The notes below the pieces were generated by a model. It was not told the DNA's origin, made no database searches, and saw nothing but the letters and a program-made list of their open reading frames with translations. This document shows positions 12,670-20,388 of a DNA stretch of 64,000 bases, piece by piece; positions within the stretch are counted from its first letter, which is position 1; each line of letters starts with the position of its first letter. Origin of the DNA: a virus (Duplodnaviria; Caudoviricetes). The stretch covers positions 10,757 to 74,756 of the IMG/VR virus record IMGVR_UViG_3300032272_000007. One strand, 5' to 3'. Both the position numbers and the translations under genes were made by a program.

Positions 12670-12829
12670 AATGCTGTGTTTAGTTTAAAGATACCCAAAG
12701 ATAACATTAGTTTACTTAAAGTCAAGTATTATCAAGTTTATTTTGATTATGTTGGTGAATTCGTCCTAATTGGCTATCATTGGAATTGGTTAGGTTAAAT
12801 AGATCGGCTTGATAAACCGATCGACATGG

Positions 12830-12862
12830 AGAGCTCATCACAAAATGGTGGGCTCTTTTTTT
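12830..12862 (+). terminator. Rho-independent terminator on the plus strand (no upstream CDS)
   Basis: AGAGCTCATCA-CAAAA-TGGTGGGCTCT followed by a T-run. Confidence 0.6.
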
Positions 12863-12997
12863 AAGACACTTTCAATGTAGCGCCATTGAGTATTGACGGT
12901 TATTTAGGTAGGTAGCGCCCTCGAAGCATCCTAAATCACCGTCCAATAAGAAGAGATTGCCAATTTTAAAGACTTCGCTACCTTGGACCCATCGGAT

Positions 12998-13522
12998 TCA
13001 TTTCGGTGGGTTTTTTCGATTTCGCTTCTTACGCTTCTTAGCCTGCATCTTTTCGAGCCTTTCACGTTCTGGTCGCCTAAGACCAGTGTCGAAATGAAGC
13101 AAGGAGAAAGCATAAGGAGACATAACAGGATTGTAGTTGCAAATTCTACTCTCAACTGCATTCTTCAAACATCGAACATAATAGCCTACAATGCTCTTCC
13201 CGCTACTCTGAATGCAGTATTTGTCTATCTCATAGGCTTTCTGATTCAAAAAAAAAGCAACATTCCCCTTCGCAAGTAATCGCTTCGACGCGATCCTAGA
13301 AATATCAACGCTGTAACCAGTATATTCAGTAACCAGATAAACAGTAAAATAACCCCCATAGTCTTCACAAATAGTGTTTATAGCCAAAAGACATGTCAAA
13401 TCCGAAACAGTGAAACCATCATATCTCTTCATTGTCTCTGTTAATGCCAAACGATGCAAACTACCTATTTCAGCAATCTGAGATGTCCTGGTCTTTCTCC
13501 ATTCAGGTTTCTTATTCTCCAT
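12998..13522 (-). CDS. Putative MarR-like winged-helix DNA-binding protein
   Basis: FTVSDLTCLLAI...FTVYLVTEYTGYS...SKRLLAKG...YCIQSSGKSIV pattern; basic C-tail. Confidence 0.45.
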   Translation of the reverse strand: MENKKPEWRKTRTSQIAEIGSLHRLALTETMKRYDGFTVSDLTCLLAINTICEDYGGYFTVYLVTEYTGYSVDISRIASKRLLAKGNVAFFLNQKAYEIDKYCIQSSGKSIVGYYVRCLKNAVESRICNYNPVMSPYAFSLLHFDTGLRRPERERLEKMQAKKRKKRNRKNPPK

Positions 13523-15173: not shown

Positions 15174-15356
15174 TCATTTTCCCGTCATTTTCTTCTTGAA
15201 TTCCATCAGCTTGTCAACAGCATCCAGCTCCAGGCTTACTACTGGAGGGTTGTTGTGGTCATTTACCATTAATTCAATCGAAAACCCAGTAAAATGGGCG
15301 TATGCTCCGTCTCCAAGATGGACGGAGTTGGTTTCGTCTCTCATTCTTCGAACCAA
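15174..15356 (-). CDS. Hypothetical protein
   Basis: ORF with VHLGDGAYAHF motif. Confidence 0.5.
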   Translation of the reverse strand: MVRRMRDETNSVHLGDGAYAHFTGFSIELMVNDHNNPPVVSLELDAVDKLMEFKKKMTGK

Positions 15357-15790
15357 GATACGTTATCAATAAATTCAACCGAACATCCTCCTGAAATACA
15401 ATCAAGATCGATTGTGGCTATCTCCGTATAACCATCATTGGATCTTATGTAGGCATAAATGATAAGTTTCCCTGAATCGATCCCGTCAATATCAGCTGTT
15501 ATGCTCGTGGATCCATCGGGTAGGATTCTTCCAGAAAGGGTTACATCACCGATTTCGTCAGGGGTATTCAATGCATCTGAAAATACTACTGCAGAAAACT
15601 GATTGCTGTACCTTTCTGATATATTGATCAGTCCAATACCGATCGCGGAATCAGAAGGTCCGGAATCTGGGGTGATCAACGCAATGTTGTATCCATAGAT
15701 AGGACCAGGTAACTCAGGCCCATTGTCACAAGAAAAAAGAGTTGTGGCTAATAAAGCCAGTAGAAGTACTGTTGTTTTGAAAGATTTCAT
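15341..15790 (-). CDS. Lipoprotein
   Basis: MKSFKTTVLLLALLATTLFSC lipobox; start at 15790. Confidence 0.75.
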   Translation of the reverse strand: MKSFKTTVLLLALLATTLFSCDNGPELPGPIYGYNIALITPDSGPSDSAIGIGLINISERYSNQFSAVVFSDALNTPDEIGDVTLSGRILPDGSTSITADIDGIDSGKLIIYAYIRSNDGYTEIATIDLDCISGGCSVEFIDNVSWFEE

Positions 15791-15841
15791 AATTTTATGT
15801 TTAAAGTTTATGAGGTTAAATATAGTTTGGTTTATTGATAT

Positions 15842-15857
15842 AATCAAATTATATTTG
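15842..15857 (+). promoter_or_regulatory. Promoter (-7 element TATATTTG) for the tRNA-Met/ncRNA transcript
   Basis: TATATTTG at 15850-15857; identical 16-mer at 20368-20383. Confidence 0.6.
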
Positions 15858-15873
15858 ATTTAAGTAAGTATAT

Positions 15874-15946
15874 AGCGCTGTAGAGCAGATGGTAGCTCGC
15901 TAGGCTCATAACCTAGAGGTCGCCGGTTCGAGTCCGGCTGGCGCTA
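15874..15946 (+). tRNA. trnM: tRNA-Met (CAT), initiator-like; CCA not encoded
   Basis: Cloverleaf AGCGCTG/TGGCGCT, D-stem GAGC/GCTC, anticodon stem CTAGG/CCTAG with loop CTCATAA, T-arm GCCGG-TTCGAGT-CCGGC. Confidence 0.93.
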
Positions 15947-15949
15947 CAT

Positions 15950-16236
15950 AAACCAGAGAAGGGGGATGTAAGACGTGCACAGCATCCCCCGCAGAAATCA
16001 AAGGCGGAACGAACGCCAATGGGACAGCGGACATTGAATAACCATTGGAACTGAGATTTCCTAGCCACCGAAAGGTGTTTAAGCCGACTGAATCAAATCA
16101 ATTAGATGATATGCCCCTATCCGCTGGGGGGCTTTGTTGAGAGATTCGAAGACAACCATTTGTAAGACAGGCCAGACGTAGAGCTGGTATCTCGATTAAC
16201 AATAGAAAAGGGGCAGTATATCTGCCCCTTATTTCT
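15950..16236 (+). ncRNA. Candidate structured non-coding RNA downstream of tRNA-Met
   Basis: No ORF; several GC-rich stems, a CACC-GAAA-GGTG tetraloop hairpin, potential loop-loop pairing, ends in a terminator. Confidence 0.5.
16208..16236. terminator. Probably bidirectional terminator
   Basis: AAGGGGCAG-TATAT-CTGCCCCTT between convergent transcripts. Confidence 0.7.
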
Positions 16237-16283
16237 TCCCAAACTGGGTATTTACTTTCCGAACGACCTTTATTTTTTCATAG

Positions 16284-16643
16284 CTATTTCTGGTATGTTC
16301 CTTCTACATCTCGGCTTTTCCGATCAATCTGGCGCTGCAGTAGCCATTGTTGCGCCTCCTGGAGCTTAGTGATCACCAATGCACCTTCACGGCTAGGCAC
16401 TAGTCCGTTTTTGTATTGAAGGTCATGGATCATTACAGCAAGTAGGTGCTCGTGTAGCGTTCCTTCACGTTTTTCTACCTCCTCCTCATTTACTTTGGAT
16501 CCACGGACGAAATTTAGCCGTTGTTGCGCCGCTGGATCTTCCACATATTCAAGGCCTTTTCCATCCACTACTCTGTAGACTGGAAGTAAGTAAGACGTTC
16601 CTTCTTCGAGAATTTCGAAGTCATTTTTCAAATCGATTTCCAT
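16284..16643 (-). CDS. tad1: Tad1-like (Thoeris anti-defence 1) nucleotide-sponge protein
   Basis: LNFVRG...GTLHEHLLAVMIHDL...SREGALVITKLQEAQQWLLQRQIDRKSRDVEGTYQK matches the Tad1 C-terminal hairpin pattern as I recall it. Confidence 0.7.
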   Translation of the reverse strand: MEIDLKNDFEILEEGTSYLLPVYRVVDGKGLEYVEDPAAQQRLNFVRGSKVNEEEVEKREGTLHEHLLAVMIHDLQYKNGLVPSREGALVITKLQEAQQWLLQRQIDRKSRDVEGTYQK

Positions 16644-16748
16644 TGTATATAATATTTAATTGTTAAAAATTCAATCTATAAAGCCGGATCCCTATTGCAG
16701 CAACTCCAACGGTTGCGGCTACTGTATTTTTTAGAAAGTCGCGTCTTT

Positions 16749-16931
16749 TCATATCCCAGTCTTTTGTTCGTACCGTGTAATCAGCACTAAAATGAAAGAG
16801 TGGTAGTTCTTTGCTATCACGGGATTTCCTGTTAAGATGTATTCTAGCGGGCTCAGAACCATTAAGATGAGAAAAATGACAAATGCCACGATTAATAACA
16901 GAATGCCGATGATTCTAAATAGTATTTTCAT
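16749..16931 (-). CDS. Small membrane protein
   Basis: Long N-terminal hydrophobic helix. Confidence 0.55.
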   Translation of the reverse strand: MKILFRIIGILLLIVAFVIFLILMVLSPLEYILTGNPVIAKNYHSFILVLITRYEQKTGI

Positions 16932-17125
16932 TCTTCCAGTAACAGTTTTGCTGCTTTTTCAAAGGTTTCTCCAGTGAATTTTTCATCTCCAGTGGTCTCA
17001 AGTAGTTCGAATGCCTGCGGATTTTGGTCTAAAATATCCCTTTTCAGAAGTTGGACCAACTCATCATGATCACCTTGAGAATTCGCTATTAACCATTGAT
17101 GGTAAGCTGTCTTTTCTTTTTCCAT
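16928..17125 (-). CDS. Hypothetical protein
   Basis: ORF with ATGA coupling. Confidence 0.55.
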   Translation of the reverse strand: MEKEKTAYHQWLIANSQGDHDELVQLLKRDILDQNPQAFELLETTGDEKFTGETFEKAAKLLLEE

Positions 17126-17483
17126 TACTTATTTGGGTTATAGCCACATTCTCCACAATCACCCCCTTGGTAGTAGGGGTTTCCGCAGCAGTGGCAAAAG
17201 TCTGATTTTTTCATTCTGATTTGTAGTTAATGCTCTCCTGAGAGCTTTCTAGTAGGTCGAATACCTTGAAAATGGTTTCTCCAGCGAATCCCCTCTCAAA
17301 TTCAAATACTGCAGTCTGAATCCTGGCGTACTGAAACGTCTTTCGGAAGAATGGTCCTTTGCGTTACTCATGTTTTACGTTTACCGTTGGAAATACAACA
17401 AATTCAGCATTCAATTTTTTCACCTCTTCACGAAGCTGGAGGAGCTCCTGGTAATCCTCCAGTGGTATCTTTGCGTGGAACAT

Positions 17484-17771
17484 CTACATTGGCAAGTTGA
17501 AGTTCTCCATAATTCGTTCAATTTGAGCTTGTAAGTAGTGGATCTCGGATTCTAGTTCCTCTATAGCTGCAATATGCCTCGGAAATTGGCTGTTGTTATC
17601 TGTTGAATCTGGGGTGGGTTCTTTCTGAATAGCATTATCAAAAATCTCATTGGTTAAATTGTGTAAGTTTTGATTAACATTACTGATTCTATCCCGACAG
17701 CTAATAACTTTTTCAGTCTGCTCTACAATAGAGGCTAGTTTTGGTGATTTTGCATCAATTAAATCCTTCAT
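17484..17771 (-). CDS. Hypothetical coiled-coil protein
   Basis: ORF directly downstream of tRNA-Cys. Confidence 0.55.
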   Translation of the reverse strand: MKDLIDAKSPKLASIVEQTEKVISCRDRISNVNQNLHNLTNEIFDNAIQKEPTPDSTDNNSQFPRHIAAIEELESEIHYLQAQIERIMENFNLPM

Positions 17772-17793
17772 TTTTATAAATTTAGAGTGTTAG

Positions 17794-17866
17794 AGACGAT
17801 AACAGGGCTCGAACCTGTGATCAATGTTTTGCAGACATTCGCCTTGACCAACTTGGCTATATCGTC
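17794..17866 (-). tRNA. trnC: tRNA-Cys (GCA); CCA not encoded
   Basis: GACGATA/TATCGTC acceptor, AATGT-CTGCAAA-ACATT anticodon arm, ACAGG-TTCGAGC-CCTGT T-arm. Confidence 0.93.
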
Positions 17867-17909
17867 TAAAAGGGAAGAGCTCACTACACTCTTCCCACAG
17901 TTATGCTGA

Positions 17910-18575
17910 CTAATCAGCAGAAAGTGATTTCACTACAGCTATGAATAGATCATCTTTGTAGCGTTGTGATTCAGGGAGATCGGCGTAAGGAACGATGCAC
18001 GGGTGCAATTTCTTCTCAGGATCTTTCTCCTCACCGTATTTCCAACCTTCATCTACCTTATCCTTCATCCAGTTGTTGTGAAGTGAATCAGGCCCAGCTT
18101 TTGGGTTCTCCAAACGGAAAATTACACCCTTAACAGCGCTCTCTTTTTGCCAATCTGGTGCCTTTTCCCAAGTTAGCTGAGAATTGTCACCGATCGATTG
18201 GCAATAAGTTCTGTTGACTTCGTGGCAGGTTTCGGCGATCTTAGCAATGAAAGCGGCTTTTTTAGCCGCCAGGTGTTCTTTATCATCAGCTTTGCCCTTC
18301 TTTTCATCTTTATCGGCTGTAACTTTCGTATTACCAGCATCAAAAACATCTCCAGGAGACCATGACTGGTAACCATCTTCATAAACCACAAAGTATCCTC
18401 CAGCTATTGGATTATGCTTTTTGACATATAAATGAGAAACTGCGAACTTTTTACCCTTTGAGGGAGTGATAATTGCAGAACCGCCGGGTTTTAGCTTAAC
18501 GGATTTGATTTTACAAGCACGAACCACCTTGTGGCTTCTGTACTCCTGTAATTTTGAAACATCTAATGGATCCAT
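17910..18575 (-). CDS. Two-domain protein: conserved phage N-terminal domain plus C-terminal RyR (ryanodine receptor repeat) domain
   Basis: N-term YRSHKVVRA...GGYFVVYEDGYQSWSPGDVF; C-term HNNWMKDKVDEGWKYGEEKDPEKKLHPCIVPYADLPESQRYKD is the RyR signature. Confidence 0.75.
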   Translation of the reverse strand: MDPLDVSKLQEYRSHKVVRACKIKSVKLKPGGSAIITPSKGKKFAVSHLYVKKHNPIAGGYFVVYEDGYQSWSPGDVFDAGNTKVTADKDEKKGKADDKEHLAAKKAAFIAKIAETCHEVNRTYCQSIGDNSQLTWEKAPDWQKESAVKGVIFRLENPKAGPDSLHNNWMKDKVDEGWKYGEEKDPEKKLHPCIVPYADLPESQRYKDDLFIAVVKSLSAD

Positions 18576-19874: not shown

Positions 19875-19888
19875 TCTACCTTTGGATT

Positions 19889-19970
19889 TCGCCTCTCAAG
19901 CCTTCACTGGCTGAATCATAATGTGAGGAGTGTTTGAAGTAAAACCCTTGGATCCATTCAGGGGTTTTTT
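19889..19970 (+). ncRNA. Candidate trans-acting sRNA antisense to early-gene start regions
   Basis: TACCTTTG at 19877-19884, terminator at 19941-19970, contains CATAAT and TGTTTGAAGT. Confidence 0.5.
19941..19970 (+). terminator. Rho-independent terminator
   Basis: AAAACCCTTG-GATCCATT-CAGGGGTTTT followed by further Ts. Confidence 0.7.
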
Positions 19971-20033
19971 TGTACCTTAGCACTGGTGGTTTATTTTTTC
20001 AAGGCTCAGTATGAGTTTTTAAGTATGAGCGTC

Positions 20034-20066
20034 AAAACCTCTGGGATTTTCTCAGAGGTTTTATTT
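20034..20066 (+). terminator. Rho-independent terminator
   Basis: AAAACCTCTGGG-ATTTT-CTCAGAGGTTTT. Confidence 0.65.
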
Positions 20067-20197
20067 TCGAGAGGATCAGGATGTTGAGATCAAGCATTCG
20101 TGGGAGTGGTTGAAGGCCACAGCTGGGCAATTCTCTTTGCAAGATCATCCAGCCGTTCTGAAAAAGCCCACAGTTGAATTATGCCCTCTCTGCAAGG

Positions 20198-20234
20198 AAG
20201 TCCCAGCGCTACTATACTGGGCTTTCTTGTTTTT
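20198..20234 (+). terminator. Rho-independent terminator
   Basis: AAGTCCCAG...CTGGGCTTT followed by CTTGTTTTT. Confidence 0.55.
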
Positions 20235-20237
20235 CTA

Positions 20238-20299
20238 ATCCCCTTTGTATCCCCTCAGTATGGTCATACTAAGGGGATGTATATCCCCTTTGCATCCCC
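20238..20299. repeat. Direct repeat ATCCCCTTTGYATCCCC flanking a near-perfect inverted repeat
   Basis: 17-mers at 20238-20254 and 20283-20299; palindrome at 20249-20278. Confidence 0.75.
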
Positions 20300-20388
20300 G
20301 CTTGTATGGTATTGATATACTATAACAATACACTATTAATACAATATCTACTAGTAGCAGTAAGGAGAATCAAATTATATTTGTTTCT

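Follow-up and report, generated by a model that had tools for sequence, protein, structure and literature searches.

An undescribed ORF-free stretch behind tRNA-Met in a temperate Bacteroidota phage: a possible trailer and termination region of a self-contained tRNA unit

The tRNA-Met unit and its surroundings

The DNA analyzed here, referred to below as the window, is a 64-kb stretch that covers most of a 74.8 kb IMG/VR record estimated to be 93% complete. It encodes a large terminase (TerL), a portal protein, a 3641-aa ORF and, at 1716–2888, a tyrosine integrase (PF00589 and PF13102). The species genomes that contain TerL relatives belong nearly all to Bacteroidota (Chryseolinea, Flavisolibacter, Terrimonas, Lacibacter and Hymenobacter), and some of these relatives are integrated in Bacteroidota chromosomes; it follows that this is a temperate phage of Bacteroidota. 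Its gene layout is crAss-like, a term used here as a descriptive label only. The TerL homologues P0011, P0033, P0035, P0038 and P0043 are ~1090–1100 aa long and carry Hint/intein and LAGLIDADG-type domains (PF05203, PF05204, PF14528), and by this domain content they are predicted to be intein-containing terminases within the phage group.

The tRNA-Met gene and the ORF-free stretch behind it are located in a leftward (minus-strand) accessory region (Table 1). Together they form a single plus-strand unit with its own promoter match and terminators amid minus-strand genes. The lipoprotein-like ORF on the upstream side has no match in Pfam or PHROG and no homologue beyond the same phage, and a Tad1/Acb2-like gene converges on the unit from the other side. 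A gene for a RyR-domain protein also neighbours the unit. The Tad1-like and RyR-domain genes enclose a hypervariable region (window 15341–18575 compared with L002:1767–3288, L002 being a locus from a relative with 61% TerL identity). The spacing is 124 bp in that relative versus ~1.3 kb of small ORFs and tRNA-Cys here, and the gene set beyond the Tad1-like gene differs between the two phages.

Table 1 Features of the tRNA-Met unit and its neighbours, in window coordinates.
Feature	Position	Strand	Description
Lipoprotein-like ORF, 149 aa	15341..15790	-	Signal (…LFSC); divergent from tRNA unit; from ORF list, start refined by reading frame
Bacteroidota-type promoter match	15826..15857	+	TTTG-N20-TATATTTG; ends 16 nt upstream of tRNA-Met
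tRNA-Met (CAU)	15874..15946/7	+	CCA not encoded; ARAGORN; Rfam RF00005, 65.8 bits
Candidate 3′ trailer	15947..16112	+	ORF-free, purine-rich; without Rfam match or homologue
Hairpin 1	15961-15968/15983-15990	+	GGGGGATG/CATCCCCC; 8-9 bp G+C-rich stem, 12-14 nt loop, U-tract absent; inverted repeat I20
Hairpin 2	16016-16022/16042-16048	+	CCAATGG/CCATTGG (7 bp); loop contains CAGCGGA
Hairpin 3	16066-16077	+	CACC-GAAA-GGTG; 4 bp, GNRA loop
Hairpin 4	16113-16117/16128-16132	+	GCCCC/GGGGC (GCCCC…GGGGGC); loop contains TCCGCTG
Intrinsic-terminator-like site	16113..16139	+	Hairpin 4, then TTTGTTG; terminator scan
Spacer between the two terminator-like sites	16140..16207	+	~70 nt; fold z = -1.34, unremarkable
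Bidirectional terminator (predicted)	16208..16230	both	9-bp stem, better T-run on minus strand; scan of both strands
Tad1/Acb2-like protein, 119 aa	16284..16643	-	Convergent; phrog_2428 at 1.2e-18; PF24729 at E = 0.0034, below cut-off

The promoter match in front of tRNA-Met follows the consensus TTTG-N19-21-TANNTTTG, which is that of Bacteroides sigma-ABfr promoters. The consensus has a single full match in the window, at 15826–15857, and 1.27 matches are expected by chance, so that the match is telling because of its position before the tRNA. As the sole full match, it may represent the strongest host-type promoter in the window.

The D-arm-to-T-arm core of tRNA-Met (15883–15938) differs by one base from bacterial tRNAs with the 5′ ends GCGGGGTGGAGCAG; bacterial tRNAs from other metagenomes almost match it over this core but not in the acceptor stem. 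The core and an A11:U24 pair make the tRNA look initiator-derived. Position 1 pairs with position 72 as A-U, however, and there are two, not three, G-C pairs in the anticodon stem, so that by general initiator-identity rules it may work as an elongator or in an unusual role. Neither ARAGORN nor RF00005 to E <= 10 identified a second or degenerate tRNA gene in the stretch; only 15874–15946 was detected. The second tRNA of the phage, tRNA-Cys (17793–17866), lies within a minus-strand operon with spacers of only 21–43 nt.

The sequence-only reading had reported no ORF behind tRNA-Met, and the stretch is indeed non-coding: the plus-strand ORFs reach at most 31 aa and none is credible. A 51-aa minus-strand frame runs antisense into tRNA-Met. 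The GC content of the stretch (0.46–0.52) lies above the coding and genome average of 0.42 and the 0.22–0.27 of the AT-rich spacer that carries the promoter match. Its plus strand is rich in purines, and the adjoining minus-strand genes show the opposite skew.

The terminator scan found no terminator-like site between tRNA-Met and 16113, and two beyond. A G+C-rich hairpin followed by a T-rich run, which defines an intrinsic terminator, is present at 16113–16132 on the plus strand and at 16208–16230 on both strands, the latter 50 nt beyond the stop of the convergent Tad1-like gene. Counted from tRNA-Met, the trailer thus runs for ~165 nt before the first terminator-like site is reached and for ~260 nt before the second; the first (16113–16139), with its hairpin and T-rich run, is where the tRNA transcript is likely to end first. 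As in a 3′ external transcribed spacer (3′ETS), the stretch is contiguous with tRNA-Met, on the same strand, and joined to it by a terminator-free junction.

Comparison with known RNA families and search for homologues

The stretch was compared with the 4227 models of Rfam 15, which include GOLLD, ROOL, tmRNA, RNase P, 6S, ribozymes, C4 and CRISPR repeats. Only the two tRNAs pass the family gathering thresholds. When the search was extended to E <= 10, it returned only terminator-type look-alikes at ~16114–16310, with scores of 15–20 bits versus cut-offs of 44–56 bits. No tmRNA was identified by ARAGORN in the window and genome, nor by Rfam. Bacterial RNase P RNA (type A, RF00010) was sought across the entire phage record and did not match at E <= 10, and it was detected in the control genomes. 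The HDV-like architecture was searched with a strict descriptor that allowed zero mismatches and specified a nested double pseudoknot with a P1 of 6–7 bp, a P3 of 3 bp and a closing P2. The descriptor yielded 0 solutions for HDV-like or theta ribozymes with starts at 15930–15989, and the HDV-like Rfam families showed no match even at E <= 10. The motif AACCATTGGAA may bear some likeness to a Bacteroides type II-C CRISPR repeat, and this likeness enters none of the readings below.

The stretch is thus undescribed and fits none of the described RNA families. This agrees with the sequence-only reading, which could not assign it to tmRNA, RNase P, GOLLD or theta ribozymes, and the Rfam 15, ARAGORN and descriptor searches extend that result to the other described families. 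GOLLD and ROOL are structured RNAs often located beside tRNA genes in phages and prophages; they are 500–800 nt long and conserved in many genomes, whereas the stretch is shorter than 300 nt, unique and without an Rfam match. Theta ribozymes occur within ~5 nt of phage tRNAs, often tRNA-Met (PMC10879173). The stretch differs from these minimal HDV-like ribozymes in that their nested P1/P2/P3 double pseudoknot cannot be drawn from any of the starts covered by the descriptor.

Homologues were sought at increasing distance from the phage. By BLASTP identity of TerL, the closest relatives with usable contigs share 61%, 50%, 49% and 47% (loci L002–L007); they contain no tRNA and nothing that resembles the stretch. 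In the 61% relative the Tad1-like counterpart is 75% identical, and an unrelated gene lies 8 bp further, without tRNA or trailer. Among 80 more distant IMG/VR relatives, tRNA clusters are found upstream of TerL and the stretch is absent. A blastn search with 'distant' settings matched only the tRNA part in 50,697 GenBank phage records and found no homologue of the stretch in 72,556 plasmids. Up to ~150 fetched loci (1.7 Mb) were searched with both nhmmer and blastn and gave no homologue, nor did a scan of IMG/VR with four k-mers from the body of the stretch and one 20-mer anchored in the tRNA. One k-mer match, in locus L148, could be extended to 29 nt; it lies inside an HNH gene and was dismissed as chance. 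The tRNA-anchored 20-mer has 15 matches in JGI metagenome contigs, all in high-GC coding DNA and 0 in tRNAs. BLAST against five genomes with related prophages and 401 Bacteroidota genomes returned chance matches only, 17–34 nt in length. A single-sequence covariance model reached 21 bits at best over 100 loci (1.3 Mb) and 151 genomes, with the top match falling on a hairpin-1 look-alike downstream of an unrelated gene. In the Logan run index the stretch appears only in the source sediment DNA sample and is covered by no RNA run; four other runs cover only the tRNA core, 15874–15945.

A conserved structured RNA is recognized by homologues with compensatory changes, and no homologue was found in the collections searched. 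The stretch is a singleton from one sediment sample. The proposal that it represents a class of non-coding RNA is therefore unsupported: none of the collections searched yielded a second member, and the stretch is missing from the nearest relatives sampled. The rest of the phage genome contains no antisense complementarity of note to it, and a 13-nt match of 15949–15961 to A-rich start regions of early genes is at chance level.

HNH genes and tRNA genes are neighbours in distant relatives as well as in unrelated phages. In the distant relative L059, a 114-aa HNH ORF (L059:269–613) is located between tRNA-Met and tRNA-Arg, directly behind tRNA-Met, and in L148 an HNH homing-endonuclease gene (L148:3186–3962) lies ~380 nt from tRNA-Gly.

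Fold strength and the loop-loop pair

The four stems, the terminator and the 7-nt complement between two loops are all present where the sequence-only reading had placed them. The whole 293 nt folds at -88.9 kcal/mol, with a z score of -3.45 on the plus strand versus -1.34 on the minus strand, and the stronger plus-strand fold supports the plus-strand orientation. The z score falls to -1.81 for 15948–16205, in which the terminator hairpin is left out, to -1.07 for the central domain 15991–16112 that holds stems 2 and 3, and to -1.34 for the 3′ spacer 16133–16207. Plus-strand windows of the same size over the first 30 kb have a median z score of -0.8, and a score of -3.45 or below is seen in 3 of 75. 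The thermodynamic signal stems mainly from the terminator and one hairpin. Two plus-strand windows, 20001–20293 (z = -4.5, -99 kcal/mol) and 12801–13093 (z = -4.3), outfold the stretch, and no Rfam family matches either of them. The former sits in a 514-nt ORF-free gap (19875–20388) and also has a 7-nt loop-loop configuration (20015–20038/20249–20278).

In the nested ensemble, hairpin 1 (p = 0.99–1.0), a GGCG/CGCC pairing at 16003–16017, hairpin 4 (p = 0.93–0.95) and the terminator are firm, all with p >= 0.93. Stem 2 (p = 0.03–0.06) and stem 3 (p = 0.08–0.09) are minor because CAGCGG can pair with CCGACTG at 16084–16090. Hairpin 2 also competes with the GGCG/CGCC pairing and with a CAATG/CATTG pairing.

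The segment CAGCGGA (16025–16031) in the loop of hairpin 2 is the exact complement of TCCGCTG (16120–16126) in the loop of hairpin 4. When the pseudoknotted model of the sequence-only reading was forced, it cost 2.3 kcal/mol and the loop-loop duplex was worth -11.1 kcal/mol, which makes the pseudoknot physically plausible. A loop-loop complement of at least 7 nt occurs in 0.55% of shuffles of the stretch, and the stretch holds 8 complementary 7-mer pairs versus 2.3 in shuffles. A kissing loop defined in this way was found 6 other times in the real 64-kb window, three of them within the TerL gene and the giant ORF, so that a reader who scans 64 kb is expected to meet one. The fold and the kissing loop are no better than chance in this window. 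The observation of the sequence-only reading is thus partly confirmed, being real in the sequence and not beyond chance, and the description of the stretch as a structured RNA with a kissing loop is not supported: the signal arises mostly from the terminator and one hairpin, and the loop-loop pair is within chance for the window.

A trailer with two terminators and the alternatives

We put about even chances on the stretch belonging to a self-contained, moron-like tRNA-Met unit of the accessory region, as its 3′ trailer and termination region. Transcription together with tRNA-Met, as the sequence-only reading had proposed, is probably the natural reading because the stretch is on the same strand, directly behind the tRNA, joined by a terminator-free junction and preceded by a host-type promoter match; this part of the proposal stands on anatomical grounds. 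Both the better plus-strand fold and the purine skew fit transcription of the plus strand. Host RNA polymerase would start at TTTG-N20-TATATTTG, ~10 nt before the tRNA, and read into the trailer. Most transcripts would end at the hairpin-plus-U site 16113–16139 and the remaining ones at the bidirectional terminator 16208–16230, which would also stop the convergent Tad1-like gene and so separate both transcripts. Since CCA is not encoded, the tRNA is proposed to be freed by an RNase Z-type cut behind its discriminator base, which would leave a trailer RNA of ~170–280 nt as a by-product whose decay may be slowed by the stable hairpin 1. This start, these ends and this processing, and a trailer without a function of its own, are what we infer from the arrangement of the unit.

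The placement of the promoter match, the layout of the terminators, the 6 other kissing-loop instances and the lack of homologues in the collections searched favour a trailer with terminators, as does a fold signal that collapses without the terminator and lies within the background of the phage itself. Lengths of ~165 and ~260 nt are, against this, long for a dense phage genome in which the tRNA-Cys spacers measure only 21–43 nt. A GC content above the coding average, the excess of complementary 7-mer pairs and the energetically competitive pseudoknotted model also count against it. The absence of the unit from the 61% TerL relative and three further relatives, together with the orphan status of the lipoprotein-like neighbour, indicates that the unit is a lineage-specific insertion in a variable region. 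The unit resembles phage morons, which are likewise autonomous units with promoter and terminator between operon genes, absent from close relatives and of higher GC than their surroundings, but its cargo is a tRNA with a long non-coding trailer, not a protein gene.

The same length, raised GC content and plus-strand purine bias could also be expected of a functional, discrete structured RNA of ~190 nt (15948–16140), released from the tRNA precursor, shaped by the 7-bp loop-loop contact and with a role in trans such as that of a decoy or regulator in a counter-defence island. Such an RNA would agree with the strong promoter match in front of the tRNA, with the surplus of 7-mer self-complementarity and the rarity of the kissing configuration among shuffles, and with a pseudoknotted model that lies ~2 kcal/mol from the nested optimum before the -11.1 kcal/mol of the duplex is counted. 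The Tad1/Acb2-like and RyR-domain proteins would be fitting neighbours, and T4 offers a precedent in RNAC and RNAD, non-coding RNAs of no known role that are transcribed with the phage tRNA genes (PMC3014915). The likeness to these RNAs, one of description and not of compared sequences, lies in a non-coding RNA in a tRNA context; they differ in being demonstrated stable species, and the stretch is known from DNA sequence alone and is carried by no relative. We nonetheless regard a functional RNA as unlikely, at something like one chance in a handful. It has no second member in the collections searched, no conservation and no covariation, and it is missing from the nearest related phages sampled. 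Without the terminator its z score is -1.1 to -1.8, genes of the window contain equivalent kissing configurations, the nested ensemble gives hairpins 2 and 3 only minor weight, and notable complementarity to the rest of the phage genome is lacking. This last point also separates the stretch from the tRNA 3′ETS RNAs. The E. coli 3′ETS-leuZ sponge is likewise freed by processing from the 3′ side of a tRNA precursor, as is proposed here, but it is short and has known targets and a known sponge function, whereas the trailer would measure 170–280 nt and a search of the phage genome revealed no complementary target. The most specific form of the proposal, a one-of-a-kind RNA of ~190 nt that is cut from the 3′ side of the tRNA-Met precursor, holds the 7-bp loop-loop pseudoknot, is driven by the strongest host-type promoter of the region and acts in trans from a counter-defence cluster, for instance by regulating the phage or by decoying a host defence directed at RNA or tRNA, is improbable.

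A GC content above the phage average could also mean foreign origin, and the stretch would then be inert filler: DNA captured along with the tRNA gene from a bacterium or another phage, or a decayed small gene such as a homing endonuclease. The near-identity of the tRNA core to bacterial tRNAs and the lineage-specific character of the entire neighbourhood are consistent with capture, and the HNH ORF right behind tRNA-Met in L059 is consistent with a decayed gene. A tblastn comparison with 10,851 ORFs of 91 related or fetched loci and two HNH proteins revealed no similarity, however, and the six frames all contain scattered stops, without a long interrupted frame. No match was found in 401 Bacteroidota genomes, and a tRNA gene with the same 3′ half is absent from IMG/VR and the JGI metagenome contigs, so that no donor is visible. 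Inert filler is accordingly a poor prospect. At the DNA level, the tRNA and its flank could be the attP of the tyrosine integrase, and the repeats would then be protein-binding sites rather than RNA helices. Tyrosine integrases often target tRNA genes, the phage encodes such an integrase, and relatives are integrated in Bacteroidota chromosomes. The integrase gene, however, lies at a distance of 13 kb, and the tRNA is complete, with a promoter match of its own. An attP core would be expected to have the 3′ 20-mer of this tRNA in common with a host tRNA, but no tRNA gene of IMG/VR or the JGI metagenome contigs contains it. Arm-type direct repeats are absent, with just short two-copy matches present, and an attachment site is very improbable indeed.

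The locus has cautionary value in that convincing hairpins and a perfect 7-nt loop-loop complement arise by chance several times in 64 kb, and most of the fold z score is due to the terminator hairpin. If the trailer were stable and functional, it would be a counterpart, in a Bacteroidota phage, of the unexplained RNAC and RNAD of T4 and a possible RNA-based counter-defence factor beside sponge-like proteins. The tRNA unit itself, which is lineage-specific, carries the sole full match to the host promoter consensus and is located in a variable accessory region, is possibly of greater biological interest than its trailer.
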